Virus record (IMG/VR): IMGVR_UViG_3300045836_000108
Span: 1 to 64,000 of that record
From: a virus
Lineage: Duplodnaviria; Heunggongvirae; Uroviricota; Caudoviricetes
Direction: 5' to 3' (one strand)
Length of the DNA stretch: 64,000 bases
Shown here: positions 17,161 to 50,382 of the stretch, piece by piece
Layout: every line of letters begins with the position of its first letter
Position numbering within the stretch: position 1 is the first letter of the stretch
The notes under the pieces: generated by a model
Seen by the model: the letters and a program-made list of their open reading frames with translations, nothing else
Told to the model about the DNA's origin: nothing
Database searches by the model: none
Program-made: the position numbers and the translations under genes

Positions 17161-17169
17161 GGAACCTCC

Positions 17170-19986: not shown

Positions 19987-19995
19987 GGAGCCTCC

Positions 19996-22900: not shown

Positions 22901-23430
22901 TTCATCATCGGCACGGAATACTCCGCGCCCTTGCCCATGTCGTGCAGGGCAGTGGTCAACGCGTCAGCAACGGTGGTGACGTTGGCGCCTTCAGCACGGG
23001 CACCTTCTGCCGCGATCTTCATGACCTTCAGGCCGTTAGCGCCGTGGAAACCCGCAGACTCCACGTAGTACATGGCGTCCGCGAGGGCTTTGCTGGAGGT
23101 GCCGGTCTGAACGGACATGTTCAACAGTCCGTCGGAGACCTGCTTGATGGGTCCGGTCAGCTTCCCGTTAACGACGTTGCCGGTTTCTCCAGCAGACGTC
23201 ACCAGCTTGATCATCGACGCCTGCCAGTCACCGGCCATTTTCACCGAGACAGCAGTGATACCAACAGCGGCCAGGGAAACGATCTTCGCGGCCTTGGTGA
23301 CCGCCTCGCCGATCTTGTCGGCTTTGGCAGAGAAACCCTCCGCCTCGGCACCAGCCTTAGACAAACCCTCCGTGAAGCCCTGCGACACCAACCCGAGCTT
23401 GATGAAAAGGTCGGCAACTTCCGACGCCAC
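19996..23430 (-). CDS. Tape measure protein
   Basis: 1144 aa; Ala/Gly/Leu/Met-rich helical composition; position after chaperone pair. Confidence 0.8.
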   Translation of the reverse strand: MASEVADLFIKLGLVSQGFTEGLSKAGAEAEGFSAKADKIGEAVTKAAKIVSLAAVGITAVSVKMAGDWQASMIKLVTSAGETGNVVNGKLTGPIKQVSDGLLNMSVQTGTSSKALADAMYYVESAGFHGANGLKVMKIAAEGARAEGANVTTVADALTTALHDMGKGAEYSVPMMNMMIRAVGSGKMSMEDFAGSLSAVLPQAAQAGISFADVAAAEANMTVAGNTAQNSAQMLGHTIASLQSPNATAVKAMATFGLSTMDLKEHLGQRGLLGTMGEIDQAIMNHLGPDNTYLANTFNTSKVASQNLSQMMSNMAPEVRHLADEVMNGTISSKDYAAALNLLPENLKAQGSEFLTLYKNANSFNQSLRNGVPGADTFAGALRKVLGDTVDTNTALQIGGVNLATFAANEQNISDGAKTAGDNIETWGVITQGFNFKIDQARQFIETTAIKLGTMLLPKLMEFMDYVQRTAGPLLHDLGRDIHDALDSDAVHQAEGVIVQFLQNFGRVLKEAWVSVTNLWGAVQPLAGLLAGAFFLALQAVGIVMANVVGPAVEAVTGFLKDHSGTIKLLAEVILPALIGRLIILKSLEVFTGLMNGLGTVLTMFQTLGKTIASGTMFDTLRLKAMYAADSVKNLGKEELTLQEEMAGATGASGLGGFMGKLGAAVPLVGAAAIGVSLLGSAFSSSGDKAASATASVDQFTTAMIRSRNGSKDAAMAFGHAAEDLDVLNKALAGKLADNTKFEGTEVINLQRSFDDLAGSSVRNIEPMAQLGVELGKVNQVTGKAKASLANYDAGLANLAANGQLDRAKDLMAQITSVTDDHGKALINTARDFPQYFAELDKMQAEQMLGIGTTNDATNSLANQQTQVQSTTDAMTGLSNSISDTMQQQQDMSAGLTADRSLDEFKKSIKDVTKALQDNGTSIKGDSDAAMANRDAIRAAVQAMLDNYNANVQLSGSTQDATDKLKKQIDQLVNQSSQSDATRKSIRDYIDQLDIIPKDINTNITANTAAASSNVDTLTGKMRRLLDMSNETNTAVSVASQANGANGSGGHLKAYAMGGFVDGPPGAPQLAIVHGGEYVVSLDEQRGFGASPGGSGNLTLGGGPTIIVNVQGSVLSERDLRDVIQTQMLQLGARYSTSYTPYKR

Positions 23431-24656: not shown

Positions 24657-25835
24657 TTAGTAGGCGGTAGACACGTAGTTCGTGACAGTGGCGGAGATTG
24701 CCCCACCGTCGGTGGAGTTGTAGATACCCGACAGGGAGAAGTCCGCCGACACGTACACCGTGGACAAGTCCACCTTGCCCTTGTACCAGCCCGACTTGTT
24801 GGTGGTGAGGGTGATCACCGAGCCTCCGGACGTCACCGGCTGCGTAATGGTTGCTGTTGCCGGAAGCTGCGTGTAGTTCAGGTACAGGTTCAGGTCGGTG
24901 TCGTTCTCAAAGATTGCCTTGTACGTGCCGTCCGCCTCCAAGACACCCTGGAACACCTCGCGAGGGTTCTGGGTGCCGTTGGAGGCGTGGATAGCATCGG
25001 CCGGACGCTTGATCGTCAAGTCGTACGTCAGGCCGCGCGTGGACGACGCACCCGCGTTGGTCATCGTCCACTGCCAGCCCAAACCGGGGATGGCGGAGGA
25101 GAACGCGGGCACCGGGTCAGTCTGTTCAGCGGACAGCCAGCCGGTGTACTTGACCGAGAAAGTCATCACGGCCTTGGGGTCGATCTTGATGGCGCACTCG
25201 GAGATCTTGCAACCCGGGAAGCCGCGCGTATGGCTGGAAGTGGCGTTAGTAGCCACGTCGTACTTGGTCAAACTCCACGACGTCTGCGGCGCCGTGGGGT
25301 TCTGCTTGAACGTGTGCGTTGACTGGGACGTCACCGAACCGCCAGCGGCGGTGTGCGCGTACAACGTGCCGGTGGACGGGGTGGTAATCGGAGCCGTGTA
25401 CGGGCCGGTACCAGTGACGGTGCCGACCTGCACATACTCAGTGTTGGCTCCAGCAGCGTCCTGGAGCCGGATTACCGAGTTGGAAGGCACCGACGCCGTC
25501 AACGACAGCGACGTCGCACCCTGGGAGCAGTTTGACGCCAACGTGGTGCTGACACCGACGGTGGTTACAGTGTCCGGGCCGATGATCCCCCGCAGCAGGT
25601 AAGGGATAGCGTCCGGGTACGCCATGACGTCAATGGAGAACGTGGAATCACCCGGACCCTGGTACAGGCCCTGTACCAGGGTGTCGTTGTTGCGGTACGA
25701 CTCGTCACGCAACTCAACGTACACGTCCTCCGCATCGATCTTGGTGCACGGGATGTAAAACGCAGGCGTGACGTAGGTTCCCTGCGTCACCTCCTTGGCG
25801 ATGCCCACATACCCGAGCTTCGCAAGAGAAGTCAC
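24657..25835 (-). CDS. Major tail protein candidate
   Basis: 392 aa Thr/Ser/Gly-rich; immediately upstream of chaperone pair. Confidence 0.5.
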   Translation of the reverse strand: MTSLAKLGYVGIAKEVTQGTYVTPAFYIPCTKIDAEDVYVELRDESYRNNDTLVQGLYQGPGDSTFSIDVMAYPDAIPYLLRGIIGPDTVTTVGVSTTLASNCSQGATSLSLTASVPSNSVIRLQDAAGANTEYVQVGTVTGTGPYTAPITTPSTGTLYAHTAAGGSVTSQSTHTFKQNPTAPQTSWSLTKYDVATNATSSHTRGFPGCKISECAIKIDPKAVMTFSVKYTGWLSAEQTDPVPAFSSAIPGLGWQWTMTNAGASSTRGLTYDLTIKRPADAIHASNGTQNPREVFQGVLEADGTYKAIFENDTDLNLYLNYTQLPATATITQPVTSGGSVITLTTNKSGWYKGKVDLSTVYVSADFSLSGIYNSTDGGAISATVTNYVSTAY

Positions 25836-27429: not shown

Positions 27430-28089
27430 TTACCTCCGGGTGTACGCCGTCAAGATCTCCAACGCGTCCAGCCGGAGCGCGTCAGGGTCGTGGCCGTGCA
27501 TGGACTGTGCTGGGTCCAGCTGCTTCAACACGATGGAAGCCGCCATGAACTCGCACGCCTGCTCCAGGTCCAGCGGAACCGTGGAGTAGCCGCCGGAGTA
27601 CTGCACGACGATGGTGGTGCCCACCGGCACGTACGTTCCCAGCTGGAACCGGCAGTGACCGGTATCGGATTCGTATTGTGTCGTGTTGGGAACCACGGCC
27701 TGGGTACCCGAGTAGGACCGCAGCAGGCTGATGCTGCTGATGCTGCCGGTCCAGTACTCGGGGAACTTGGGAGGGTACTCCCGCACCCAGAAGTGGCGCA
27801 CAAGCTGGGAGGTGCCCAAAGACTGGGCGCGGGAGAAACCGATCTGCGCCGACGGCTCCATGGGGCCGGGGATCTCGGTGATGTCGTCCACATCAAGAGC
27901 TTGAGCGCGTTGAGTCTCGGTGAGGTTGGTGAACGGGGCCAGGCGCCGGTCCGCTGCGGATTCCAGCATGCGGGTGGCCCGCATCATGATCCGATCCAGG
28001 GCGGGTAGGGAGTAGTCGCGCACCAGGTCAGCGAACGCCCCCTGCTGCATGGTTGCGGAGGTGCACAGCGGAGTGGGGGTGTCGGACAC
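27430..28089 (-). CDS. Hypothetical structural protein (219 aa)
   Basis: Late-operon position. Confidence 0.5.
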   Translation of the reverse strand: MSDTPTPLCTSATMQQGAFADLVRDYSLPALDRIMMRATRMLESAADRRLAPFTNLTETQRAQALDVDDITEIPGPMEPSAQIGFSRAQSLGTSQLVRHFWVREYPPKFPEYWTGSISSISLLRSYSGTQAVVPNTTQYESDTGHCRFQLGTYVPVGTTIVVQYSGGYSTVPLDLEQACEFMAASIVLKQLDPAQSMHGHDPDALRLDALEILTAYTRR

Positions 28090-28101
28090 GGTGCCCTCCT
28101 G

Positions 28102-28383
28102 TTACTCGGCGATCTCAGTTTTCTTGGCGAGCTTGCCGTTTTCGTCCCTCACCAGGCGACCTTTGTCGTCGCGCGGACGCCGGAGCTTCGGGGTGGGTTC
28201 TTTGTCCTCAGGAGACTCCTTGGGAGTCTGTTCTTTCGGCTCGGGCGCGGAGGCTTCGCTGAAGCCGCCCTGGGGGATGTTGAGGAGTTCGGTGGCCAGT
28301 TCGTCCTCAACCCAGAGGACCTGTCCGTCTTCGTCCCACGTGTGACCCGGGGCACTTCCGGCCTTGTCTTTCTTGAGGTACAT
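28102..28383 (-). CDS. Hypothetical protein (93 aa), Lys/Glu/Pro-rich
   Basis: First late gene after the opposite-strand island. Confidence 0.45.
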   Translation of the reverse strand: MYLKKDKAGSAPGHTWDEDGQVLWVEDELATELLNIPQGGFSEASAPEPKEQTPKESPEDKEPTPKLRRPRDDKGRLVRDENGKLAKKTEIAE

Positions 28384-28388
28384 GATCC

Positions 28389-28440
28389 GCCTTTACTTCA
28401 CCTTTACGACGCTTACATTTATGCGGTAACGTAAGGGACC
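28389..28440 (+). promoter_or_regulatory. Variant copy of the conserved promoter module (CTTTAC..GCTTAC..TAACGT..GTAAGGGA) heading the + strand island
   Basis: Sequence similarity to the 55-64 kb modules; followed by GGAGG and the GTG of gene 28501. Confidence 0.4.
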
Positions 28441-28500
28441 CGTTACCCCGTGAGCCAGGCTAAGGCCCACGAGGACTCACGCTAACTCCGGAGGCACCAC

Positions 28501-28767
28501 GTGGACTACCTGCTGACCCTCACACTGGCATACCGGGAGGGCACGACCATGCGTTACGCCGACGCGCGTTACATCGTCAGTATCGCGCCCGGCCAGCAGA
28601 CCTCCGACATCCTCACGGAGGCGTACGCCAAGCTGGTGGCCGAAAAGGAGATCGACGACACCCCCGGCAAGTGCGCCGTCGTCGCCTGGAACCTGGTCCC
28701 CAACGTTCTGGTTCCGGAGCCGGTGAACCAGCTCATGACCGCCCGCCCCTCCGCGCGTAAGAGGTAG
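28501..28767 (+). CDS. Hypothetical protein (88 aa), island gene 1
   Basis: GTG after CCGGAGG. Confidence 0.45.
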   Translation: MDYLLTLTLAYREGTTMRYADARYIVSIAPGQQTSDILTEAYAKLVAEKEIDDTPGKCAVVAWNLVPNVLVPEPVNQLMTARPSARKR

Positions 28768-28769
28768 GA

Positions 28770-29381
28770 GTGCCCCAAGGCCACGGACGCCGGTCCATCC
28801 CAAGCGCCAGACTCCGCAAGGAAATCCTGGAACGGCAGGGACACGTCCTGCGCATAGACGCCAGCGAAGAACAAGCCACCGTTGGTGTCGTACGCAAAGA
28901 CGGCAGAACCACCACCGTCACCGTCACGCCGGACGACCTCACCGACGCCCGACGGCGCGGACCCGTATTCAAACAACAACCGCAGGCTCTCCTCACCGCA
29001 ATGGCGCTGCACGCCGCAGCCGACTGGAGCGCTGAGGAAGACCGGCTGGACCGGCTCCGGGACGCTTTGGCCGTGGACGCGCCTTACTGCGTATGCGCGA
29101 TGTGCCTGGAAGGAAAGCACGTACCGCTTCACACCGCTGAACCGGTCAACATCGCCTACCTCATCCTCGGCAAACAACGCAACAACACAGGAGAACCCGT
29201 TGAGCTGAGCGTGGAGTACGTCATTGCCTCCAACGGACGGCTGGAGCTGAGCAAACCGCCGTACTACATCGAGGCCAGGATCTTCGACAGAGACGCGGCC
29301 ACCTACCGGCGGTACGACGTCAAGCCCTGGTGGGGAGAGTTCGTGAAAAACAAGCGCGGAGAGTGGTGGGGTACACGGTGA
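28770..29381 (+). CDS. Hypothetical protein (203 aa), Cys motif CVCAMC
   Basis: GTG after TAGGAG. Confidence 0.5.
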   Translation: MPQGHGRRSIPSARLRKEILERQGHVLRIDASEEQATVGVVRKDGRTTTVTVTPDDLTDARRRGPVFKQQPQALLTAMALHAAADWSAEEDRLDRLRDALAVDAPYCVCAMCLEGKHVPLHTAEPVNIAYLILGKQRNNTGEPVELSVEYVIASNGRLELSKPPYYIEARIFDRDAATYRRYDVKPWWGEFVKNKRGEWWGTR

Positions 29382-29590
29382 AGATCTACAGATGGACGGC
29401 GGTGATGAACTTCATCATCGCCGCGACATGGCTGTTTGAAGCTTGCGTCAACGGCAGCTTCCTGGACCTGTTCGACAGCGTCCTGTGGTTGATCATCGGC
29501 GTCGCCAACATGGCCGTGTACGTCGGAAAGAAGCGCATTGCCGAGCTGAAGGAGGAGTTAGCCGTTGAGCGCGCCCGAAACAACCTCTAA
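29378..29590 (+). CDS. Small membrane protein (70 aa, 2 TM)
   Basis: GTGA overlap start. Confidence 0.4.
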   Translation: MKIYRWTAVMNFIIAATWLFEACVNGSFLDLFDSVLWLIIGVANMAVYVGKKRIAELKEELAVERARNNL

Positions 29591-29999
29591 GACGCTCCGG
29601 CAGTCTCCCCTGACCGACGCCCTGGGTCTGCCCCTGGAAGGCCCGGAGAAGCCCGCTCCGGCCGTCCTGACCCTGCCTATGCAGTACACCGTGTCCGTGT
29701 TCCCGCTGGATGACCCCCGCCACAACCGCTACGCCTGCAAAGTCATCCGCTCCACCGACGTCGGAGAACGGCACCCCGGGGACAACTTCTACATCGTGAG
29801 GTTAGGCTCGTACCTGGCCGCCGACGGCTGGTGGGAACGGCCCACGCCGCAAGTCCTGGAAGACCCTGGACTCACCGTCGAGTGGATTGAAAACCACTCA
29901 TTCCCCCGAGAACAAGCCCTGCGCATGGCCCGCAAAGCCGCGCCCTACATTGAGTACAAGGGCATCACAGCGCTTCAAGCTAAGGACGCGACGTGCTGA
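29565..29999 (+). CDS. Hypothetical protein (144 aa)
   Basis: TTG after AAGGAGGAG. Confidence 0.45.
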   Translation: MSAPETTSKTLRQSPLTDALGLPLEGPEKPAPAVLTLPMQYTVSVFPLDDPRHNRYACKVIRSTDVGERHPGDNFYIVRLGSYLAADGWWERPTPQVLEDPGLTVEWIENHSFPREQALRMARKAAPYIEYKGITALQAKDATC

Positions 30000-30280
30000 T
30001 CGAGTTTGTCCTGGGCTACCTGCTGGTAGGCATGCTGTACGCCCTCGGGTACCACGCCATCATCCGCCACATCCGGCGCCACGCCCGCGACGGCGTTGCC
30101 AACCGGGAAGAAAACAACATCCTCAAGGAGGCAGACTCCCCCGGGGCGGCATGGCGCTACACGATCGCCATCGTTTTCCTGTGGGTCTACTTCATCGCCA
30201 GGTTCACCCGTGACTACCTCGCAGGTCTCGGCGATGATGACGACGACCCGCAGGACCGAGTACCGCCCAGGTTCCGGTGA
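29993..30280 (+). CDS. Membrane protein (95 aa)
   Basis: GTG start; two hydrophobic helices. Confidence 0.45.
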   Translation: MLIEFVLGYLLVGMLYALGYHAIIRHIRRHARDGVANREENNILKEADSPGAAWRYTIAIVFLWVYFIARFTRDYLAGLGDDDDDPQDRVPPRFR

Positions 30281-30612
30281 CCGCGTCCATTTACGCCGTC
30301 GCCTTGTCCCTAGCCTTCATCGGCTGGGGTCTGACAACTCCGCTGTGGGACCTGTGGAACTGGATCAAAAGGAGACAAGAGGTGGAGGCTAAATACACCA
30401 ACAACCTCCAGCTGCGCACGCTCGCCGCCCGCGACACCGTCGCTCAAGACGGCTGCTGCGACGTCAAGCTGGAGAAACCCGACGGTGAACGGTGGAAGCT
30501 GTGCCGTCTTCCCGCAGGACATACCGACCATCGCGTCACCGTGGAGGCGTACAACCCGGGCGACCGTAAGTACGTCGTCATGGAAATCTACCGGGACAAG
30601 GAGCAGAACTGA
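30277..30612 (+). CDS. Membrane-anchored hypothetical protein (111 aa)
   Basis: GTGA overlap; N-terminal TM. Confidence 0.45.
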   Translation: MTASIYAVALSLAFIGWGLTTPLWDLWNWIKRRQEVEAKYTNNLQLRTLAARDTVAQDGCCDVKLEKPDGERWKLCRLPAGHTDHRVTVEAYNPGDRKYVVMEIYRDKEQN

Positions 30613-30857
30613 TGTCCTCACAGTACGTGCCGGTTGCGCCCCCCGACCCCAAGTTGGACCACAGGTTCGCACCCCGCGCCGAGTACCTGGTGATCCGCTG
30701 GGACCCCATCATGCAGCAGTGGCTGCCGCCCCGCCCCGCCGTCACCGACAAGAACGTGGCCCAGGACCGGCTGCGTACCTGGCGCAGGCAGCACCCCCGT
30801 CGCCACTTCCGCATGGTGGTCGTCGAAACCACCTACAAATTGGTGGAGGACGCGTGA
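30612..30857 (+). CDS. Hypothetical protein (81 aa)
   Basis: ATGA overlap. Confidence 0.45.
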   Translation: MSSQYVPVAPPDPKLDHRFAPRAEYLVIRWDPIMQQWLPPRPAVTDKNVAQDRLRTWRRQHPRRHFRMVVVETTYKLVEDA

Positions 30858-31069
30858 AAAACCGGGCCCTCATCATGCGGCTGTTGAAGTATCCCTGGGA
30901 TGCCGAGATCGTTATCCCCGCCCCCAACAACAAGCCCTGCGCTGTCCAACCCGTCAACGACGTCACCGCCGGAACCTACCAGCAGCACCACGCCGACATG
31001 GGCGAGTTCCGCGAGGACGAGCTGCCCGGAGACGGCGGAGTGGCCGCCATCCGGCTGGACCGGCTCTGA
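30854..31069 (+). CDS. Hypothetical protein (71 aa)
   Basis: GTGA overlap. Confidence 0.4.
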   Translation: MKNRALIMRLLKYPWDAEIVIPAPNNKPCAVQPVNDVTAGTYQQHHADMGEFREDELPGDGGVAAIRLDRL

Positions 31070-31206
31070 TGACCCGGCGTCTCTGGGGGTCCGCCATCAT
31101 CGCGCTCATCGTCGGCGCCGCCGTCGGATGGCTCATCACCGACGTCATCCTCGGGCCGTCCAAACCCGCCCCAGTCACCCACGGCGCCCCGTTCCCGGGC
31201 GCATGA
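31069..31206 (+). CDS. Tiny membrane protein (45 aa)
   Basis: TGATG overlap; single TM helix. Confidence 0.35.
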   Translation: MTRRLWGSAIIALIVGAAVGWLITDVILGPSKPAPVTHGAPFPGA

Positions 31207-31244
31207 ACCAACCCGCACAACAGCGCAACGCTTCAAGGAGATTC

Positions 31245-31466
31245 ATGGAGGAGATCTCAGGCGGCTTTCCCGTCTGTTCCCTCGCGACCGGCTGGATCAT
31301 CGACGCCAACGGCGTCAAGTATCCGGCGTTGCGCTTCTGCGTGGAAGGCCAGCCTACCGATGAAGATCTGGTGGTGCCGTTGAACGTCGGCGCCATCGTG
31401 GAGCTTCAGGACGCGCTCCAGTCCATCCTGGATCAAGCCTTGGAGGAGGATGCCCGTGGCCAGTAA
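31245..31466 (+). CDS. Hypothetical protein (73 aa; alt start 31203)
   Basis: ATG 5 nt after AAGGAG. Confidence 0.4.
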   Translation: MEEISGGFPVCSLATGWIIDANGVKYPALRFCVEGQPTDEDLVVPLNVGAIVELQDALQSILDQALEEDARGQ

Positions 31467-31677
31467 CGACTACCCGGGCCAGACGCCGCTGGAAGAGAAC
31501 TCGGTCTGGAAAATCCAGGTTAAAACCAACGGCAACTGGAAGCTGTTCGAGACCGACTACCACCCGCTGCGCGGTATGGCGTTGGACCGGATTGAGTTCC
31601 TGCGGGACGCCTACCGCAGCTACGAGTTCCGCCTCATCCGCATCACCACCGGCATCTACGTAGACGGAGAACCCTAA
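31450..31677 (+). CDS. Hypothetical protein (75 aa)
   Basis: Overlapping start. Confidence 0.4.
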   Translation: MPVASNDYPGQTPLEENSVWKIQVKTNGNWKLFETDYHPLRGMALDRIEFLRDAYRSYEFRLIRITTGIYVDGEP

Positions 31678-31928
31678 TGGCCCGCACATGGGTGTACGAG
31701 TACGCCTCTGATCCCGACTCCGGCGAATCCGTGGAGGACATCACGTTCGAGTACCGGCCTAACGGCACCGTCAACATCGTCGCCCACGACGCCACGATGG
31801 GGACCGTGGAACTGGTAGGCATGCCGTTGGCCGCTCTGATGGAGGGCGCCGCCGCCATGGCTACGTACGCTACGGCCAACATCAAGGCCGCAGCCGTAGC
31901 CCTTGAACAGCTGAAGGCTCACCTGTGA
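31677..31928 (+). CDS. Hypothetical protein (83 aa)
   Basis: TAATG overlap. Confidence 0.45.
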   Translation: MARTWVYEYASDPDSGESVEDITFEYRPNGTVNIVAHDATMGTVELVGMPLAALMEGAAAMATYATANIKAAAVALEQLKAHL

Positions 31929-32308
31929 CCGCGCCGGAGCGGCTGCGGCCCAAAGAGCCTGACCAGTGGGCCACCAACATCCCGGGACGGCGTCCGGAGT
32001 TCAAAACCCATCGGATCCTGGCCCACGCCAAGAACGCCATCAACAACTTCCAGGGGCCGTTGAGCCGGGGCGTCTTCACCTGCGACATGATCCTGTACAA
32101 GCTGGTGGACGGGCAGTACGAACCTCACCTGAAGATCGCCCGGGGTACCAGGCGGGAGGACTATCCGCTGCTGGCTCCCAAGCCTGACCCGCCGTCGCAT
32201 AAGCGCGCTGAACTTGGCCGCCTGGAAAGCTCTCTGCGGTACCACGAGAAATCCGTGGAGGAACTCAAGGCCAAGATCGCGGCGCTGCGGAAGGAACTCG
32301 GTCCGTGA
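31925..32308 (+). CDS. Hypothetical protein (127 aa), coiled-coil C-terminus
   Basis: GTGA overlap. Confidence 0.45.
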   Translation: MTAPERLRPKEPDQWATNIPGRRPEFKTHRILAHAKNAINNFQGPLSRGVFTCDMILYKLVDGQYEPHLKIARGTRREDYPLLAPKPDPPSHKRAELGRLESSLRYHEKSVEELKAKIAALRKELGP

Positions 32309-32742
32309 TGGACAACTATTACGAGGCCAACAACCTGCTGGCAATTGCGGCCCCGTTCCGTCCGGGGCCGCAGCGGGACTCGCTCGTTCAGGAAGCCCTG
32401 ACGCATGCGATTCTGGCTCTGGTTTCCGAGCTTCGTAAGGGACGCCGCGCCGACATGGACAAAGGCGCCGTTACGCTGCACCGGCTCGTTACGACGTTAG
32501 CCCGATCGGGTGGCGTTTTGACCCGCGAGGTTTGGGTCGAGGGTTACCCGCACGGCGAAACGGGAAAAGTCATCATCGGCTCTCCCTCCAACCCTGAGAC
32601 AGCGCCCTTCTGGGCTGTTGAAGGCGACGGCCCGTACAGGCTCTTGCTGGGGTACAGCAACGAGGATCCCTACTACCTGGATCGCGGCCATCACCGGGGA
32701 GACCCCGTGGAGATCGTCGTCAACAACCGGAGGAACACATGA
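32305..32742 (+). CDS. Hypothetical protein (145 aa)
   Basis: GTGATG overlap. Confidence 0.45.
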   Translation: MMDNYYEANNLLAIAAPFRPGPQRDSLVQEALTHAILALVSELRKGRRADMDKGAVTLHRLVTTLARSGGVLTREVWVEGYPHGETGKVIIGSPSNPETAPFWAVEGDGPYRLLLGYSNEDPYYLDRGHHRGDPVEIVVNNRRNT

Positions 32743-33005
32743 AGGACCGCGTCCGTCACCGTCGGCGCATCTGCGCTGTGCCGCCGCCGACTATCCCCAG
32801 GGACCCCAAGCCGGGCAAGCCTCCGGGCCCGCATTCACCGCAGCCGGACCCGACTCCTACCGGTCCGCCCCCGGCTCCGCGTAGGGAGATCCCGGAGCAG
32901 CGTCGCGACAAGTACCGGCAGTCCGAAATGTATCCGACGCTGATTTCGGTGTGGCCGGACGAGACCTGCGCGCATGGCCTGCACGGGGCGGTGACGGCTG
33001 CGTAG
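32739..33005 (+). CDS. Pro-rich hypothetical protein (88 aa)
   Basis: ATGA overlap. Confidence 0.4.
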   Translation: MKDRVRHRRRICAVPPPTIPRDPKPGKPPGPHSPQPDPTPTGPPPAPRREIPEQRRDKYRQSEMYPTLISVWPDETCAHGLHGAVTAA

Positions 33006-33028
33006 GTTAGCTGAGTATCGAGCTTGTT

Positions 33029-33090
33029 CAGCCCTTCCGGCGCATGTCGGAAGGGCTTTACTTTGCTTACCGACTTCGGTAACGTTGACC
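33029..33090 (+). promoter_or_regulatory. Terminator hairpin + conserved promoter module inside the island
   Basis: Hairpin GCCCTTCCGGC-GCATGT-CGGAAGGGC, then CTTTACTTTGCTTAC, 17-nt spacer to TAACGT. Confidence 0.5.
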
Positions 33091-33131
33091 CTGCAAACAC
33101 CGACCAGGCCACACCAGAGGAGAAGCTGGAA

Positions 33132-33599
33132 ATGACCACCTACCGCCGGTTCACCACCGCCACCGTCGAGGACACCTTCGTCATCACCGAACTCACCCCC
33201 ACTGAGAACCACCCCAACAACTGGTGGCTCGACAAGATCGACGGCGTGTTCACCACCCTCGACACCCTCCAGGGCGCCTGGGACAAGGCCCGCGCCCAGG
33301 AACTGCCGGTGACCGTCCACACCCTCAACGGCGCCACCAAGAACCTCGGCGTGGTGTTCAACCCCGAGGTGTTCGAGCGCCGCGCCTACTCCGGCTACGT
33401 CGGCTACGGCCTATCCATGACGGACGGCTGGTACAGCCCCATCGACTTCGACGCCTGGGTCAAGGCCTTCCGCCGCTTCCCCGCCGAGGAACTGGCCCGC
33501 GAGAACGACTTCCACACCAACGCCCTCCCGCTGTACCTGGAGGCGCTGAAGCTCCGCAACGAGTACAACGAGGCCCTGGCCGCCGCCAACGCCTCCTGA
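33132..33599 (+). CDS. Hypothetical protein (155 aa)
   Basis: ATG after GAGGAGAAG; own promoter module. Confidence 0.5.
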   Translation: MTTYRRFTTATVEDTFVITELTPTENHPNNWWLDKIDGVFTTLDTLQGAWDKARAQELPVTVHTLNGATKNLGVVFNPEVFERRAYSGYVGYGLSMTDGWYSPIDFDAWVKAFRRFPAEELARENDFHTNALPLYLEALKLRNEYNEALAAANAS

Positions 33600-33675
33600 G
33601 CCAGCCTGAGGGTTCCCGGAGCCACCCCGGGGGCGCCTCAAGTCCGCTCAGGACACGCCTACCGGAGGAGACAGC

Positions 33676-34191
33676 GTGGAAAAGCCCAGAATCGGCGACG
33701 TCGCCAAAGACGCCAACGGCAACCTGTGGATGGTGAACGGCGGAGACGCTAACGGCCCATCCATCACCCTCATGCCGCTGGACAACAACGAATTCGGGAT
33801 CTTCCCCTACACGGCGCAACGCGACGACAACGGCTATTTCTTGTCGCTGCCCCCGCGCGGCCTGGACAACGACCAGCTCACCTTCACCGGCGTCAACGTC
33901 TGCGAACTCTGCACCGGCCTGGACAACGGCTCCCTCATCGTCAAGGACGTCAGCTTGAACGCCGAGGCCGAGGAACAGAAGATCTACGCCAAGGCCTCCC
34001 GCATGGACCGGCTCAAGGATTGGACGCTGGAGCGTTACATCGAGGCCGTGAACGCCCAAGGCGACCGTGAAGCCGCCATCTTCGAACACGCCAGCAACCT
34101 GTTCTTCATCGAGACCGGCATGTTCCCCACCTCCAGCCCGCAGGCGTACATCCGGTACGTAAAAGACCTGAACAGAACCGTCAAGAAGTGA
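33676..34191 (+). CDS. Hypothetical protein (171 aa)
   Basis: GTG after CCGGAGGAGA. Confidence 0.5.
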   Translation: MEKPRIGDVAKDANGNLWMVNGGDANGPSITLMPLDNNEFGIFPYTAQRDDNGYFLSLPPRGLDNDQLTFTGVNVCELCTGLDNGSLIVKDVSLNAEAEEQKIYAKASRMDRLKDWTLERYIEAVNAQGDREAAIFEHASNLFFIETGMFPTSSPQAYIRYVKDLNRTVKK

Positions 34192-34271
34192 GCGCCGAAA
34201 CGCCGGGAGGCGTCGTTGTGGGATGGCAGCCCACGGCCCGAACGAGGCAGGCCGCAACCAGAGGAGAAGAC

Positions 34272-34571
34272 ATGAGCGACAACACGCTGGGCGTCAGCGC
34301 CCTGGACGCGTACGTGGACAGCATCGATGACGGCGCCCCGCTCTCCGACAGCGAGAAGCACCTCCAGCAGGCCCTGAAGGCCGCGCGCCTGGAGGAGGTC
34401 CACGCGTGGCTGAAGGACCGGTTCAAGACGGCGTACGAGCAGGGCGACTACATCAACGAGGCCGCCGCCGTCGAGACGCTGTACCTGATCGAGACCGGCA
34501 AGCAGCCGGAGAACGACAACCGGGAGGACGTGGAGACGTTCCGCCGCCATCTCCTCGACGAACTGCTCTGA
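34272..34571 (+). CDS. Hypothetical acidic protein (99 aa)
   Basis: ATG after AGAGGAGAAG. Confidence 0.45.
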   Translation: MSDNTLGVSALDAYVDSIDDGAPLSDSEKHLQQALKAARLEEVHAWLKDRFKTAYEQGDYINEAAAVETLYLIETGKQPENDNREDVETFRRHLLDELL

Positions 34572-34639
34572 CCGACCCGCTTCAGCGCTCCTGGGCCGCC
34601 CGGGGGTTGCTGTGGGGGCCTGTCCATCTAGGAGGAGAC

Positions 34640-34927
34640 GTGAAGTTCAAAGGTGACCGCCGACACGTGAACGCGGTGGAGGCGTTGATGAAGGAGGAGA
34701 TCCAGCATGGCCGGATAGCGGTCACTGCCACCACTGTCCAGTTCCTGCCGGAAAGGGAAGCTCTGGTAATGGTGGAACGTGCCTTGGACCGGGCCCAACC
34801 CGGCTGGCGCAACTCCCCTCTGGAACACCTGCACAGCTTCCCGCAACCCCGCCCCCGATACATGCTCCTGCTGTCCATCCGCGATTGGATCTGCAAACAG
34901 CAGGGCCTCAACCCCCGCAACACCTGA
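34640..34927 (+). CDS. Hypothetical protein (95 aa)
   Basis: GTG after TAGGAGGAG. Confidence 0.45.
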   Translation: MKFKGDRRHVNAVEALMKEEIQHGRIAVTATTVQFLPEREALVMVERALDRAQPGWRNSPLEHLHSFPQPRPRYMLLLSIRDWICKQQGLNPRNT

Positions 34928-34940
34928 GAGGAGAAGACCG

Positions 34941-35501
34941 GTGGAGTTCAGCAGCTTATCGCCGGAGATTCAGCGCAGCCTCATGTCTGGCTGCAAACTG
35001 ATCACCCACGCGTCCGCGCCCCACGACATGCACATCAGCACCGCCGTGGAGATCCAGATCTACCGCACCCCGGACGAGCCGGTGGTGAAGATGCTGTGCC
35101 ACGCCTGCGCAGAATTCGCGGACGACGGCACCTATCACCTCATCCCCGTCAAACCGCCGTCGGTGGAGATTCCCTCCGCCAGCATGCGGCTGGAATTGGC
35201 AGCAATGCTGGCCCGACGCAACTACGCCAGCGTCCTGCGCGGCAACCGGGAAACCAATCAGTGGCGCTCCGGCGTCGAGTGGGCCGAGATGCTGTTTGCC
35301 ATTGAACACGGCTACGAGCGGCGCATGGCCGACCCGGAAGAGTGGGACGCCTTTGAGGAGGAGCTGCACAGCTCCACCCAGGCGTTCCTGGTGGCGGAGC
35401 ACGAGAAGTCGTTCGCGGACGTTGCCGCCGAGCAGGCCCTGATCGACACCGGCCACCACCCCATCAAGTGGGGTATCGGAGCGCCGGAGAGTGTGCAGTA
35501 G
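34941..35501 (+). CDS. Hypothetical protein (186 aa), last island gene
   Basis: GTG after GAGGAGAAG. Confidence 0.5.
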   Translation: MEFSSLSPEIQRSLMSGCKLITHASAPHDMHISTAVEIQIYRTPDEPVVKMLCHACAEFADDGTYHLIPVKPPSVEIPSASMRLELAAMLARRNYASVLRGNRETNQWRSGVEWAEMLFAIEHGYERRMADPEEWDAFEEELHSSTQAFLVAEHEKSFADVAAEQALIDTGHHPIKWGIGAPESVQ

Positions 35502-35560
35502 GAGCAAACCTCCGGGACCCGGAGCCTGCCCCATGCGTCTCTGGCCAACCTTGAACAGAA

Positions 35561-35634
35561 AGCCCCCTACGGACAACCGTAGGGGGCTTCTGCGTGGGTC
35601 TAAAAAGCCCCGGCAATCCCGTGGGACGCCGGGG
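35561..35634. terminator. Two hairpin terminators between the + island and the capsid gene
   Basis: GCCCCCTACGG-ACAAC-CGTAGGGGGC followed by T-rich tract, then GCCCCGGCAATCCCGTGGGACGCCGGGG. Confidence 0.55.
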
Positions 35635-35843
35635 AACAATCCGGGCTACACCTCACCCGTCCCCTGGCAGGTACCGCAAGGACCGGCCTCATAACACCAC
35701 ACGGGGACACCGTTCTGGGACCCGTTCTCGTGGCTGAACTTCTGTCCATGCCTGCAAGGGATACGGCCGGAGCCGCTACAAGTCGTACAAGTTGACATCA
35801 GTCAACCCTACCAACCGCAACGGCCCGGCCAAGCCAAGCATCA

Positions 35844-37223
35844 TCAGATGTTGGCAACAACCCGCGACAGACGACCAGCGTACTTCGGCGCCCGGAGCGC
35901 CAGCGTCGTGTCCGTCAGGACCGCGAACGGCAGCGTGTCCGGAGCCGTCACCGTCGGCGCCAGCGGCAGAATCTGCATGTTCCGGGTGTAAGGCCGGACC
36001 ATGAAGTTCGGGTCCATCGGCAGCAAGTAGATGTCCTCGTACGCGTTCTGCCCCACCGCAACCGGACGCGGCTTAGCGCCGGTGTTGGTGCCCACGTACG
36101 CCGTCGTGCCCGTGTTACCCGACGAGTTGGTGAGCAGGTTGGTGCCGGTGTCGATGATCGACGTGGTCGCGACACCGGTGGTGTCGAACGCGTCCACGAC
36201 GCCGATCAGCGTCTCAGCGCCGGTGGACGTGCCCCGGTACACCTTGTACAGGATCGGAGCCGCGCCGTCCGGCAGACCCGTCGGAGTCGAGAACGACAGC
36301 GTCACCGTGGAGGTGGAGCCGGTGGTGGTCTGGCTGACCTCCACCGAGCCTGCAATCTCACCGAAGCGGGCCACAACAGCCGACACGTTGTAGTAGTACG
36401 TGGCCGCCGCCAGCGTGCCGCCCGTGGTGGACGTCGCCGTGGTGACCGTACCCATCTGGAACGTGCGCGGCGACAAGAAGCTGGACTTCACCAGCGGGAT
36501 GCCACGGTACGTCGGCACGTTCAGACCGCCACCCAGGTTCGTGGTCGGCGCGGCGAAACGCTGCTGCGACACGAACAGCTGGGAGATAGCCGACACCATA
36601 CGGCCGGACATCAGCATCATCCACGGAGAACCGTCGATAGGCATGGCCGCGTTGGACTCGACCAGGTCAATCAGCTCGTCCAGCTTAGCCAGCGTAACGT
36701 TGCCATTGACGTCCTGCGCGTTCACAAACGCGTTGGAGCCGGTACCAGCAGTCCAGTTGGACACCAGGTAGTCCAGGCCGGTAGCCATCGGCTGCGTGCC
36801 GTTGGCCGTCGCCGGGTCGTTGCCCCAGACGAACGAGTTCTCCACGGTCCACAGCATCGACTGCACAGTGCCGTCCAGCTCCAGCTGGCGCAGGTCACCC
36901 ACGATGTCGCGGGTAACGGTCTGCGCGAAGCCGGTCACCGAACCAACAGCCTGGTACAGGCGGATGTTGTAGACAGACTGCTCGTACGTCGAGTTGCTGA
37001 TCGGACGCGCACCACCGTCGATGACGGCACCCGAGTCCGGCCGGTTCACCCGACGGTTGAAGAAGTACTGCGTGGAGTTCCACTGCTTGGTCGGGATAGC
37101 CGCCAGCATCGGAGAGTACCGGCGCTGGTACTCAAGCAGAACAGTGTCGATCGCCTTGGGAATGAGGGGGGTCACGGTCCCAGCCGTGGTCACCGCCTCT
37201 TCCAGCAGGGTCAGGTTAGGCAT
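35844..37223 (-). CDS. Major capsid protein (HK97-fold candidate)
   Basis: 459 aa; directly downstream of the protease/scaffold gene; typical MCP composition. Confidence 0.65.
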   Translation of the reverse strand: MPNLTLLEEAVTTAGTVTPLIPKAIDTVLLEYQRRYSPMLAAIPTKQWNSTQYFFNRRVNRPDSGAVIDGGARPISNSTYEQSVYNIRLYQAVGSVTGFAQTVTRDIVGDLRQLELDGTVQSMLWTVENSFVWGNDPATANGTQPMATGLDYLVSNWTAGTGSNAFVNAQDVNGNVTLAKLDELIDLVESNAAMPIDGSPWMMLMSGRMVSAISQLFVSQQRFAAPTTNLGGGLNVPTYRGIPLVKSSFLSPRTFQMGTVTTATSTTGGTLAAATYYYNVSAVVARFGEIAGSVEVSQTTTGSTSTVTLSFSTPTGLPDGAAPILYKVYRGTSTGAETLIGVVDAFDTTGVATTSIIDTGTNLLTNSSGNTGTTAYVGTNTGAKPRPVAVGQNAYEDIYLLPMDPNFMVRPYTRNMQILPLAPTVTAPDTLPFAVLTDTTLALRAPKYAGRLSRVVANI

Positions 37224-39699: not shown

Positions 39700-40695
39700 C
39701 TAGTTGAAGAATCCGCTGTACGCGGAGATGTCGAACTCTGCGGAGGACACGCAACGGCAGCGGGGGTGCGCAGGCATTGACGGAAAGTCCATGATCGGAA
39801 AAGGGCTGTCCTCGCCGTACTTCTCGCAAATGGCGCAGACCCTACCGTCCCCGGCAGTCATCCACGTCACCTTCTGCACGCCCTCCGACTTGTACAGGTC
39901 CAGGGCGCCACGGGACATACCGAACGAGGCGGCCCAGTCCACGATGAACGCAACCGTGTCCTCCTCCGGGGACAGGGCCCCCAGAACGTCCACACCGGCC
40001 CGCACCATCTGGCTGTACTCGGCGCCGGAAGCGGCAAGGTCCCCCATCGTGTGCATGAACTCGTCCGCTGCCCGCCCCAGCATGCGGTGCAGCCAGCTGT
40101 CCGCTTCTGCCCAGGTGGCGCCGTCGTTGGCCAGGGCGTCATAGGCGTGCTGGAACGCAATGTCGAAGTCAAAACCCAGCTTGTGCTCAGCAGAGGCCGC
40201 CACCGCCAAAGCGTCGGCAAAGCCCTCCGCCCGGGACGCCGTGATCAGGTCACGCATGATGTCCCGGAGTTCCTGCCACGAATTGGTGCCCGGGACCCAG
40301 GCTAGGAGGCGCATAGCCGCATCCCTAGCCTCCCGCTTGACCCGACGTAGCCAATCAGGGTCCGGGGCCGCCTCCGACAGTCCTACGGCGTTTCTGAACA
40401 ACTCCACGGCCCCGGCAACATCCAGAGCCGCTGTCGCCTGCCGCCACACCGGCAACAGCTTGGCCGTGAAGTCATCCATCAACTTGAACCGGCGGGCAAA
40501 CACCGACGCCCACACGCCTTCAAGCTTCCCCAGATGGATAGCAACCTCAAGGATGCCCGGCTGATCCCAGTTCTCAGCACACAAGTCCATCGCAGCGATA
40601 CAGCCCGCGTGGACCCGCTCCGTCATCGGACCGCCCGACATGGCCCAACCCTGCGCATACGCCGTACGGGCATACGGCCGGATGGCGTCGTTCAA
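39700..40695 (-). CDS. MuF-like minor capsid / head morphogenesis protein
   Basis: 331 aa; C-terminal CAICE...PAHPRCRC motif, characteristic of the Phage_Mu_F/SPP1 gp7 family. Confidence 0.6.
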   Translation of the reverse strand: MNDAIRPYARTAYAQGWAMSGGPMTERVHAGCIAAMDLCAENWDQPGILEVAIHLGKLEGVWASVFARRFKLMDDFTAKLLPVWRQATAALDVAGAVELFRNAVGLSEAAPDPDWLRRVKREARDAAMRLLAWVPGTNSWQELRDIMRDLITASRAEGFADALAVAASAEHKLGFDFDIAFQHAYDALANDGATWAEADSWLHRMLGRAADEFMHTMGDLAASGAEYSQMVRAGVDVLGALSPEEDTVAFIVDWAASFGMSRGALDLYKSEGVQKVTWMTAGDGRVCAICEKYGEDSPFPIMDFPSMPAHPRCRCVSSAEFDISAYSGFFN

Positions 40696-40716
40696 TGAAC
40701 CCTCCTACAGTGAGGC

Positions 40717-40951
40717 CATGAGCGAGCCTTACATCAGCGGCATGGGCGAATTCCCGGAGATCCTGCACCGGATGCGGCACGTCATGGCCGGAACCGCCAT
40801 GCCCCCCCAGTTCACAGCCAACTTCATCCGCACCCTGGTGGAGGAACTTTGGGTAGCGCACAACGTCATCAAAGACTTGGAGAAACGCGTCACCGAGCTA
40901 GAAGACCGCACCCCCGACTGGCAGATACGGACCACCTCCCCGCTGCTCTAA
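40717..40951 (+). CDS. Small coiled-coil protein (77 aa) on the opposite strand, wedged between MuF and the beta-helix gene
   Basis: Very high GC3; ATG in frame of ORF 40640..40951. Confidence 0.4.
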
Positions 40952-43244: not shown

Positions 43245-43409
43245 CTATCAACGTCTAAGCCAAGACTCCACAGGCAGAAGGTGCAGAGCCAGAAAAGCCG
43301 CCGCCAGAGCCAGCAGCGCCTCCGGGGAGAACCACGTGTTGGTGTGGGCTCCCAAACCAATCAGGATGAAGTCCAAGACGGCCGCGATTACGGCCAGAAC
43401 AGCGAACAT
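43245..43409 (-). CDS. Small membrane protein (54 aa, 2 TM)
   Basis: ATG after GGAGGT overlapping the dcd stop; hydrophobic; not in the ORF track; coordinates approximate. Confidence 0.35.
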
Positions 43410-43987
43410 CAGCGCACCTCCGTGCGGTGAAAGTTGATCCAGCCCCGGGACGGGGTCGGACCGCGCTGTCCCTGATACCTGCTGCCGTTGGCTTTATTCC
43501 CGTACGGCTCCTCCGCTGGGGAGGACAGCTGAAAGAAACACAGCTGCCCGATCTTCATCCCCGGCCACAGCTTCACCGGCAACGACGCGACATTGGACAA
43601 CTCCAACGTGACGTGGCCTGTGAACCCGGGATCGATGAAACCAGCGGTGGAGTGGACCAGAAGCCCCAGGCGCCCCAGAGAAGACTTCCCCTCCAGCCGC
43701 GCCGCAACATCGTCCGGGAGAGACACTGCCTCCAGTGTCGAACCCAGGACGAACTCCCCGGGGTGGAGGATGAACGGCTCACCGCCCTCTGGCTCCACCA
43801 TCCGGGTCAGCCCCGGCTGCTCCACAGACGGGTCAATAACTGCGTAGCGGTGGTTCTCAAACACCCGGAAGAACCGGTCCAGCCGGACGTCCACGGAGGA
43901 CGGCTGCACCATGGAGAAGTCCAGCGGGTCCAGACCGATGTGTCCCTTGGCGATGCTTGCGCGGATGTCCCTGTCGGAGAGCAGCAT
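43409..43987 (-). CDS. dcd: dCTP deaminase
   Basis: 192 aa; full-length match in character to Dcd ([21 protein letters not shown]...[17 protein letters not shown]...). Confidence 0.75.
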
Positions 43988-44089: not shown

Positions 44090-44185
44090 TTGCGCCTGGT
44101 TTGGGTTTCCAACCCATCCGGGAGCACGGCGTTGCGCAAACCAGGCAAGACCTGCCGTTCTCGACGCGGCAGGTGCTCCATCAGT

Positions 44186-44256
44186 GGGCGGCCGTGGGAT
44201 TCGAACCCACACGCACGGAAACGGGTCCGCTGTCCTACCTGTTAGACCAGACCGCC
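44186..44256 (-). tRNA. Atypical tRNA-like gene (6-nt anticodon loop; possible pseudo-tRNA)
   Basis: Acceptor GGCGGTC/GGCCGCC, D-arm GTCT..AGAC-like, T-arm GTGGGTTCGAATCCCAC are canonical but the anticodon arm folds only as GCGGA-CCCGTT-TCCGT. Confidence 0.35.
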
Positions 44257-44378
44257 CATGACACGGAGTCGTAAGACCCTTGGCTGTCAAGCAGCGCAGG
44301 CGACGTGTCTCGCCCCAGTACCCCACTGGCCAGGTGGAGCGCTTGCGGTTTGTAGTGACCGATACCGCCAAACGGTCG

Positions 44379-44484
44379 CGGAGAGAGTAGGGATTGAACC
44401 TACGCCAAGGGGATTACGTCCCTTTGGGCACCGGCCGCCTGATCAGGGCCCAGACCGGTCCCATTGCCACTCTGGCACCTCTCC
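44379..44484 (-). tRNA. Aberrant 106-nt tRNA-like element (Ser-like arms with ~11-nt insertion in the anticodon loop and oversized variable region)
   Basis: Acceptor GGAGAGG/TCTCTCC, T-arm GTAGGTTCAATCCCTAC, D region GTGCCAGAGTGGCAATGG, Ser-like anticodon stem CCGGT...GCCGG enclosing 18 nt. Confidence 0.3.
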
Positions 44485-44489
44485 AACGT

Positions 44490-44564
44490 CGGGATAGCAG
44501 GATTCGAACCTGCGCTCTCCTGATCCCAAATCAGGCGCCCTCGTCCAAGCTAGGCCACATCCCG
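44490..44564 (-). tRNA. tRNA-Pro (anticodon TGG), slightly atypical D-arm
   Basis: Acceptor CGGGATG/TATCCCG, anticodon arm CCTGA-TTTGGGA-TCAGG (U33, G37), T-arm GCAGGTTCGAATCCTGC. Confidence 0.55.
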
Positions 44565-44625
44565 TTGGCTGGGTGACCGGACAGCGCGCGTGCCCGTGAA
44601 GTACCGTGCGCCGTCCGGACCCCCA

Positions 44626-50288: not shown

Positions 50289-50313
50289 TCAGTGCCTCCT
50301 TCACAGGTTAAAC

Positions 50314-50361: not shown

Positions 50362-50382
50362 ACCAACCCAGAGGAGAACCTG

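Follow-up and report, generated by a model that had tools for sequence, protein, structure and literature searches.

The subject of this analysis is a 64,000-nucleotide stretch of a Caudoviricetes genome (the window, positions 1-64,000 of the IMG/VR record IMGVR_UViG_3300045836_000108) and, within it, a block of small genes in opposite orientation that is located inside the virion structural region. This region is encoded on the (-) strand and includes the large terminase (51428-53086), the portal (48612-50288), the major capsid protein of the SU10_MCP/HK97 type (35844-37223, Pfam 4e-9), a head-tail gene (28102-28383), the tail tube (24657-25835) and the tape measure (19996-23430), and a LamG tail protein and a GH25 lysin are also found on this strand. 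Between the capsid gene and the head-tail genes, with the gene at 28102-28383 as left neighbour, lie 20 (+) genes, here named i01-i20 and collectively referred to as the island, which encode proteins of 45-203 amino acids (aa) and span positions 28501-35501 (start codons refined by reading frame, Shine-Dalgarno (SD) sequence and upstream stop codon). An earlier note on this DNA had reported about 20 small (+) genes within the late operon, which is confirmed by the strand switch, the coding periodicity and the independent gene calls described below.

The coding share of 28501-35501 is 96%. In all 20 open reading frames (ORFs) the GC content at the third codon position (GC3) is 0.75-0.96 versus 0.34-0.61 at the second (GC2), so a missing coding signature, which the earlier note had named as an argument against the block, was found for none of them. 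Along the region, the GC-by-codon-position periodicity follows the (-) strand up to 28383, the (+) strand from about 28.45 to 35.5 kb and the (-) strand again from 35.8 kb. The GC content of the window is about 63% throughout, that of the island is 0.62-0.65 and therefore equal, and in GC3 the island resembles the capsid, tube and portal genes. Independent pipeline gene calls for three near-identical contigs from other samples likewise place exactly 20 (+) genes between (-) genes of 93 and 459 aa, and exact database proteins exist for nine of the ten ORFs that were looked up, in clusters of 2-6 members located on contigs of 78-103 kb. The same arrangement is present in independent assemblies of different samples (SRR23978791, SRR35486024, SRR23978796, JGI) and also in six related genomes. 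The exact proteins on contigs of this size therefore point to a virus of about 100 kb that has not been cultured, and an assembly accident can be excluded as the source of the arrangement. Our best explanation of the data assumes a phage of the siphovirus type whose hosts are high-GC Actinobacteria of soil.

The island consists of two units. In the tightly packed unit A (i01-i15, 28501-33005), neighbouring genes overlap by 4 nt or 1 nt at 8-10 of the 14 junctions, the count varying with the choice of start codons, which agrees with the tight coupling proposed earlier. It opens with i01 (28501-28767, 88 aa, GC3 0.90, with an exact database protein) and the gene i02 (28770-29381, 203 aa), which we call the anchor. 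These are followed by i03 (29366-29590, 70-74 aa with a start at 29366 or 29378), i04 (29565-29999, 144 aa), i05 (29993-30280, 95 aa), i06 (30277-30612, 111 aa), the basic i07 (30612-30857, 81 aa), i08 (30854-31069, 71 aa), i09 (31069-31206, 45 aa), i10 (31245-31466, 73 aa, or 87 aa from the alternative start 31203), i11 (31450-31677, 73-75 aa), the acidic i12 (31677-31928, 83 aa), i13 (31925-32308, 127 aa) and i14 (32305-32742, 144-145 aa), and the unit is closed by the proline-rich and basic i15 (32739-33005, 88 aa). Unit B (33132-35501) comprises i16 (33132-33599, 155 aa), i17 (33676-34191, 171 aa), the acidic i18 (34272-34571, 99 aa, or 127 aa from the alternative start 34188), i19 (34640-34927, 95 aa) and the closing gene i20 (34941-35501, 186 aa). 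Its genes are separated by spacers of 13-80 nt, some of which carry GC-rich hairpins without T-runs, and each is preceded by a strong SD of the GAGGAGA type. Transmembrane-like segments were found in four proteins, as one segment in i03 and i09 and at the N-terminus of i05 and i06, in accordance with the several membrane proteins of the earlier note.

For none of the 20 proteins did Pfam, PHROGs, PADLOC or NCBIfam return a meaningful match, which upholds the earlier statement that no domain can be recognized; PHROGs returned two weak matches to families of unknown function, and the match of i03 to PHROG 8695, a family of this sort, is weak. The island proteins matched no virion structural family in Pfam or PHROGs and no known Acr or other anti-defence family, as would be looked for in the cargo of a counter-defence island, and PADLOC detected 0 families among the 20 proteins and two neighbouring ORFs. 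For i02, i16, i17 and i20, the four largest tested, the PDB sequence search yielded no match, and Pfam matched none of 21 further island ORFs from relatives. Pattern scans of IMG/VR with i02, i17 and i20 found nothing, word-indexed searches with i13 and i02 retrieved near-identical copies only (two database clusters in the case of i13), and no paralogues of island genes occur elsewhere in the window. A single-sequence AlphaFold2 (AF2) model of i20 was unusable (pLDDT 39). The idea that i16-i20 form a paralogous family on account of a shared 'IETG' motif was rejected, as BLASTP gives no alignment with E <7.

Both units are headed by the sequence CTTTAC-N18/19-TAACGT (28402-28432 and 33056-33085). 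All promoters and terminators described here are sequence predictions. The related pattern GCTTAC-N-GGTAACGT has two matches in comparison to 0 expected, and the unit heads read as a -35 element TTTACN, a spacer of 17-18 nt and a putative -10 element of the actinobacterial TANNNT type. At the island head (28391-28432, (+)), the -35 element CTTTAC is duplicated (28391-28396 and 28402-28407), followed by the spacer element GCTTAC at 28411-28416 and the -10 element TAACGT at 28427-28432, which together with A28433 also reads TACGTT on the (-) strand. The leader of unit A (28433-28500, (+)) contains the conserved element CCCGTGAGCCAGG (about 28446-28458) and an SD GGAGG at 28490-28494. The internal promoter at the head of unit B (33056-33131, (+)) is composed of a -35 element CTTTAC (33056-33061), a -10 element TAACGT (33080-33085), a conserved leader and the SD GAGGAGAAG, and aligns over its full length with the canonical cassette heads of this phage. 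A relaxed search showed that the two unit heads are variants of a canonical module, CTTTAC-N3-GCTTAG-N9/10-TAGGCT, with 11 further copies in the window, ten on the (+) strand (50317, 55025, 56521, 57227, 57944, 58566, 58964, 60051, 61078, 61774) and one on the (-) strand (63684-63713). According to the alignment, a cassette head of about 85 nt consists of a terminator hairpin ending in GGGGGC, the promoter, a conserved leader of about 35 nt (...CCCGTAAGCCA...ACCG), GAGGAGA and ATG. In the internal copy and in several canonical copies, a strong hairpin (-27 to -35 kcal/mol) with GGGGGC at its end is followed directly by TTTAC; therefore the T-tract of the terminator and the next -35 element are the same bases. 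An operator-like dyad GCTTAC...GTAA was considered as a distinct repressor site and dropped, since one relative has CTTAG at this position (L044) and the canonical modules are only partly symmetric. Cassette heads precede almost every gene at 55-62 kb, and the genes driven by them are all without Pfam domains.

Unit A ends at an intrinsic (+) terminator (33030-33057) with a 12-bp stem, a T-rich tail TTTACTTTGCTT and about -27 kcal/mol, which is the best (+) terminator in the scan and overlaps the -35 element of the internal promoter. The promoter module at the head and the second one at 33 kb with its terminator hairpin, both part of the earlier description, are thus real as sequence features. 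Two further hairpins had been proposed to end the block, and both exist. Hairpin 1 (35556-35593, about -30 kcal/mol) can be read on both strands with a tail TTTCTGTTC on the (-) strand and only CTTCTGCG on the (+) strand, and hairpin 2 (35607-35634, about -20 kcal/mol) has its TTTTT tail on the (-) strand only; therefore it would terminate the capsid-side transcript and not the island. Taken together, the two hairpins mainly resemble a tandem terminator that serves the capsid-side transcript, and hairpin 1 probably closes the island unit as well. The boundary terminators of the proposed moron island are therefore present, but they mainly seem to stop the capsid transcript.

To place the island in its family, we collected more than 45 related loci from IMG/VR, GTDB genomes, a metagenome scan and exact-protein look-ups. 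A megablast of positions 28000-36000 against cultured phages found nothing, and a tblastn search with the capsid protein among 50,697 phage records yielded Leptospira phages only (23.5% identity, none above 24%). In about 20 distinct relatives (capsid 53-79% identical), the distance from the capsid gene to the homologue of 28102-28383 is 59-131 bp, and the order continues with an equivalent series of head-tail, tube and tape-measure genes; about five others contain 0.3-0.8 kb of sequence or ORFs on the same strand between the capsid and head-tail genes. An opposite-strand block was absent from the capsid/head-tail junction in at least 25 relatives. It is present in seven close genomes, namely the window and those labelled L001, L002/L026, L003/L025, L027/L048, L044 and L046, in which the flanking proteins are highly similar (capsid 88-90%, the product of g27430 85-87% and the tube 81-90% identical). 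Accordingly, the comparison with related phages proposed in the earlier note did not reveal an ancestral arrangement, since only the closest clade carries the island, and the absence of its genes from most relatives speaks against a role in virion structure or assembly. Where both ends are seen, the island measures 7.2 kb in the window, 4.1 kb in L002/L026 and, by contig coordinates, 11.3 kb in L003/L025; it is seen in part in L001 (at least 3.8 kb), L027/L048 (at least 4.8 kb) and L044 (at least 5.3 kb and at least 18 genes), and with its head only in L046. The parsimonious reading of this distribution is that the island was gained in the ancestor of one tight subclade. A hairpin after the capsid gene is universal in the family. 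In 20 of 25 island-less relatives, no more than two T occur among the 8 nt that follow it, whereas in the window, L001, L002 and L003 the final hairpins ahead of the island carry T-runs. At the nucleotide level, both hairpins of the window are kept in L001.

Within the clade, the content of the island is mosaic and most of the cargo is unique. Island genes shared between genomes are 23-50% identical compared with 85-90% for the flanking structural proteins, and the amino-acid conservation with diverged relatives reaches E values of 1e-21 to 1e-56. A backbone of genes kept in the same order (i01, i02 ... i13 ... i18, i20) connects the window with L027/L048 and L001 and includes a 47% homologue of i01 at the same position in L027/L048, a 33% homologue of i18 in L001 and a 23% tblastn match to i20 at the same relative position in L001. 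The gene most widely common to the relatives is i13, with homologues in the islands of L001 (50%), L048 (47%) and L003 (35%), and it is the only gene shared with L003. L002 has only the N-terminal domain of i02 and i06 in common with the window, and L044 this domain, i04 (33%) and i06, the i06 homologues of both genomes being 46-48% identical. The only recognizable cargo was detected in L003, whose capsid is 89% identical: positions 17068-20843 (-) of its island encode a polynucleotide kinase-phosphatase (PNKP; PF25109, 1.6e-49), a RlaP nucleotidyltransferase (1e-16) and an Rnl1-type RNA ligase (7e-16), and the remaining cargo has no Pfam domains. Phage T4 uses its tRNA-repair set against host anticodon nucleases, and by analogy with T4 Pnk/Rnl1 versus PrrC we take the set in L003 to be tRNA-repair counter-defence.

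Conserved features are found at the head of the island. An HMMER search with i02 against 1.8 billion representatives found 21 relatives, and the protein turned out to be a fusion of an N-domain (residues 7-97) and a C-domain (97-197) with the Cys motif CxCxxC, each of which also stands alone as a small protein. Matches of i02 to two large repeat proteins (P0046, P0049) were judged as low-complexity noise, and the possibility that i02 is a merger of two adjacent genes was rejected, because in L044 and L046 the anchor is followed by genes that bear no relation to the C-domain. A member of the N-domain family opens the island or is its second gene in the window, L027, L026, L044 and L046, that is in five of the six heads seen, and thus the N-domain is a conserved anchor beside variable cargo. 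An AF2 model of i02 from a 20-sequence alignment (pLDDT 91) predicts an alpha-beta-beta-beta-alpha topology for the N-domain, which resembles a double-stranded RNA-binding domain (dsRBD) with significant structural similarity and has no helix-turn-helix (HTH). The best PDB match in Foldseek was Acb4 (E 0.03, TM 0.43), and the fold matches in a viral library were uncharacterised proteins and ERF/RecT proteins. As the modelled fold is generic, we draw no functional conclusion beyond a likely binding of nucleic acid or a small ligand. The island-head variant of the promoter module is likewise common to the window (CCTTTACGACGCTTAC..GGTAACGTA), L027 (CCTTTACGTCGTTTAC..GGTAACGTA), L026 (CCTTTACTGTGCTTAC..GGTAAGGTA), L044 (CCTTTGAGTCACTTAG..GGTAAGGTA) and L046 (CCTTCGAGCCGCTTAC..GGTAAGGTA).

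In our view, the locus is probably a hotspot, located where the capsid gene and the first head-tail gene meet, that is occupied by a lineage-specific, fast-evolving accessory island with a role in counter-defence, host takeover or superinfection exclusion. The two head elements, of the form TTTAC-N17/18-TAAsGT, would be sigma-A-type promoters read by the unmodified host RNA polymerase, so that expression of the island would be independent of the late structural transcript and could take place early in infection or in the prophage. The terminators would stop the capsid transcript before it collides with transcription of the island, and the old capsid-to-tail operon would thus be split in two, which agrees with the T-runs next to the island and with their frequent lack after the capsid gene of island-less relatives. 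The products, small soluble and membrane proteins, would most likely target the host or competing phages instead of taking part in virion assembly. Judged by analogy from the position, the variability, the divergence, the small membrane proteins and the cargo of L003, host-interaction functions such as counter-defence, host takeover or exclusion are most likely what the island encodes.

The splitting of the operon raises the question of how the head-tail and tail genes are supplied. No cassette-type promoter was found on the (-) strand upstream of the head-tail genes, and no shared (-) motif was seen on inspection of the gaps in the late region. All six island heads have a quasi-palindromic -10 element (GGTAAsGTA in five and GGTATCGTA in L025), and in each of the six a (-) TANNNT is found 32-44 nt ahead of the start codon of the head-tail gene. 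The internal module of the window (TAACGTT) has no (-) TANNNT, and no (-) -35 element is evident at the island heads. The head-tail/tail half may be re-supplied by divergent initiation from the quasi-symmetric -10 element of the island head. Bidirectional promoters that arise from -10 symmetry have been described (Warman et al., 2021), with divergent start sites 18 bp apart according to the summaries in PMC10268837 and PMC12825309. The island heads are alike in that TAACGTA/TAAGGTA reads as TANNNT on either strand, each -11A pairing with the -7T of the opposite strand, which in our case is deduced from the letters. A divergent -10-symmetric promoter at the island head is a tentative proposal, which we regard as possible but doubtful. 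In addition, the bases at 28384-28400 seem to be used twice: the -35 region CCTTTAC is GTAAAGG on the other strand, where it is a likely SD of the head-tail gene with the start codon 8-12 nt away, and this double use is kept in L026, L027, L044 and L046. The same bases would therefore be constrained on both strands. An extension of the idea would be a counter-defence/takeover operon that is marked or regulated by the i02 anchor, whose N-domain is dsRBD-like and often carries a zinc-ribbon tail, and whose -10-symmetric head module is a bidirectional promoter for the accessory genes on one side and the head-tail and tail genes on the other. As RNA polymerase can bind in only one orientation at once, the module would switch between accessory and structural expression; we consider this extension quite unlikely.

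Several points weigh against our interpretation. None of the 20 proteins has an assigned function, and counter-defence or exclusion therefore rests on analogy and on the cargo of one relative. The island lacks any compositional signature of a recent foreign origin, as its GC and GC3 equal those of the rest of the genome. A simple sigma-70 scan did not flag the island promoters, and the comparison of island-less relatives covered flanks of about 10 kb around the capsid gene (about 20 kb per locus). The idea of a divergent promoter is weakened by the fact that -11A and -7T occur on both strands of any TANNNT, so that the likeness to the known symmetric promoters is partly automatic, and by the homology of five of the six heads.

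Among the alternatives, a lysogenic-conversion cassette, in which prophage promoters drive products that protect the lysogen against other phages, survives best, yet we regard it as unlikely. It would account for the opposite orientation with own promoters and terminators, which is the layout of morons, for the four small transmembrane-like proteins and for the relative within the chromosome of Amycolatopsis halotolerans at 4.68 Mb, and defence hotspots at fixed sites are known from P2-like phages (PMC9122126). On the other hand, PADLOC recognized none of the 20 proteins, neither an integrase nor a repressor was found in the 64-kb window, the RNA-repair set of L003 serves an infecting phage, and the same promoter family drives about ten other genes at 55-62 kb, which are unlikely to be all expressed in the prophage. 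It is even less probable that the island is a relocated set of essential early or middle genes whose functions are found elsewhere in the genomes of the relatives. The own cassette promoter grammar, the composition equal to the genome and the backbone i01, i02, i13, i18 and i20 kept in order would fit such a relocation, and the island-less relatives were inspected in flanks of about 10 kb. But the content differs strongly among genomes with 85-90% identical structural proteins, down to the sharing of the i02 N-domain and i06 in L002 or of i13 in L003, no island homologues were detected outside the island clade in about 20 kb of each of more than 40 related loci, the window contains no paralogues, and HMMER found only 21 relatives of i02 among 1.8 billion representatives. 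Finally, high-GC DNA yields many long spurious ORFs on both strands, but shadow ORFs or an assembly or inversion artefact can practically be dismissed in view of the (+) coding order of codon-position GC in all 20 ORFs, the strong SDs and start/stop overlaps, the amino-acid conservation (1e-21 to 1e-56), the pLDDT of 91 for the i02 model and the same gene order in independent assemblies and six related genomes.

A lineage-specific accessory island, as we prefer to read the locus, is a known kind of feature: it is a moron-type island, and morons, P2-type hotspots and anti-CRISPR (acr) loci are its precedents. The term moron was reportedly defined by Juhala and Hendrix for the lambdoid phages HK97, HK022 and lambda, and classic examples with an opposite-strand or independent layout are bor and lom of lambda and the morons of HK97. 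As in these phages, the extra DNA is present or absent between the same two structural genes, has its own predicted promoter and terminator and lies, as morons often do, on the opposite strand or independent of the late operon. In contrast to the one or few genes of lambdoid morons, the island comprises 7.2 kb with 20 genes in two units. A distinct base composition, which is frequent but not obligatory in morons, was not found. Its signals, too, are the repeated cassette module of the phage itself and not foreign. Of the two readings offered in the earlier note, convergent transcription across the structural genes and a moron island with its own expression signals, the latter is supported by the predicted own promoters and terminators and by the absence from relatives.

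Variable hotspots at fixed positions have been described for P2-like phages and P4-like satellites (Rousset et al., 2022, PMC9122126). The island shares with them the fixed position, the boundaries formed by core genes, the variable cargo between close relatives and the suitability for guilt-by-association approaches. The P2-type cargo serves the anti-phage defence of temperate phages, whereas the island has no PADLOC match, and its only recognizable cargo, found in a relative, is counter-defence RNA repair; the host phylum and the phage lineage also differ. Furthermore, structural operons of actinobacteriophages can be broken by non-structural genes, as in Arthrobacter Cluster AL (PMC5513430), which are likewise actinobacterial siphoviruses with an interrupted terminase-to-tail order. 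Cluster AL has no sequence relationship to the phage analyzed here, and the size, the antisense orientation and the terminator-promoter cassette are, as far as checked, not reported there. Therefore, the premise of the earlier note that late structural operons are normally uninterrupted was too strong in view of these actinophages (PMC5513430) and of the P2-type hotspots (PMC9122126). For the position among head genes there is a further parallel, which comes from a different group of phages. Loci with acr genes and their associated aca genes occur in the head-gene region of Mu-like Pseudomonas phages, and both they and the island are accessory operons in the head morphogenesis region with an own promoter and variable ORFan cargo beside a conserved marker. 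The acr/aca loci are located on the same strand as the structural genes and have 1-3 genes, whereas the island has 20 genes on the opposite strand, and they are marked at the 3' end by the HTH repressor Aca, while the i02 N-domain is dsRBD-like, lacks an HTH and marks the 5' end.

The phenomenon itself would therefore not surprise a phage genomicist, and the lineage in which it occurs has no cultured representative. The locus provides a delimited pool of about 20 ORFans per genome together with comparable sets in at least six relatives, which can be screened for counter-defence, takeover and exclusion. Few such genes are known in Actinobacteria, and hotspot islands hold the fastest-evolving host-interaction genes of phages. 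If the anchor-marked operon with a promoter switch considered above were true, the anchor in combination with the promoter signature could help to find new anti-defence genes in phages of Actinobacteria. The locus is furthermore a clear natural case of a late operon divided by an insertion.

Sequences related to the structural module (capsid 67% identical) were also found in actinobacterial genomes, namely L023 in a metagenome-assembled genome of Catenulispora and L024 in the chromosome of Amycolatopsis halotolerans JCM 13279 (4.68 Mb on a 10.2-Mb contig). Both belong to the about 20 relatives with 59-131 bp between the capsid and head-tail genes. The location of L024 inside a chromosome suggests that the family has temperate members and an actinobacterial host phylum. 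Other variable sites exist in the family: some genomes contain about 1.4 kb of extra sequence between the homologues of g27430 and g26629 (L010, L013 and L014 versus L012), and 1.2-4.4 kb lie between the pectate-lyase-like and MuF-like genes (homologues of g40948 and g39700), at 2179-6562 in L003 and 1430-2680 in L001. In the window, a second opposite-strand insertion (50305-50823) is located between portal and terminase, consisting of a 146-aa (+) gene (50383-50823, GC3 0.91, no match in Pfam, PADLOC or NCBIfam) behind a cassette module of the canonical form (50317-50346).

The space from the capsid gene to the two hairpins, which is outside the (+) block, contains a (-) ORF of 50 aa with two CxxCxGxG motifs of the DnaJ zinc-finger type (35646-35798), which was not called by the pipeline; an ORF about 58% identical is found at the equivalent place in L003, and it is absent in L001 and L002. 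Rfam identified no known RNA at 27.5-37.5 kb. Pfam matches among the 40 remaining ORFs of the window comprise Band_7, GerE, Tad2-like, Peptidase_C92, HTH_30, RHH and PD-(D/E)XK. The match to the Tad2-like domain (Thoeris anti-defence 2; 7e-8) concerns one of these 40 ORFs, probably the 86-aa ORF at 45219-45479 (-), which was assigned by the N-terminal motif MNFMDAHKLATEQHAVRRQGW only and had no match in the PDB sequence search. The left arm encodes a weakly RecT-like protein (1857-2912, (+)), a VWA-domain protein (4736-6127, (+)) and a probable regulator of the GerE/LuxR type (about 8467-8916, (+)). Non-structural or otherwise unusual genes within the late strand are a dCTP deaminase (43409-43987, (-), 5.5e-47) and, upstream of the MuF-like gene, a pectate-lyase-like protein of 645 aa (40948-42885, (-)), and a lone 103-aa (+) ORF called by the pipeline (40640-40951) is located between them. 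A tRNA-Met(CAT) was detected at 56333-56408 (-). Further tRNAs are encoded in the (-) region 44184-44698, namely tRNA-Pro(TGG), tRNA-Ala(TGC) and one ARAGORN call (44184-44257) with an odd two-base anticodon, and the 800-bp gap in which they are located appears to hold more tRNA-like sequence than was called.

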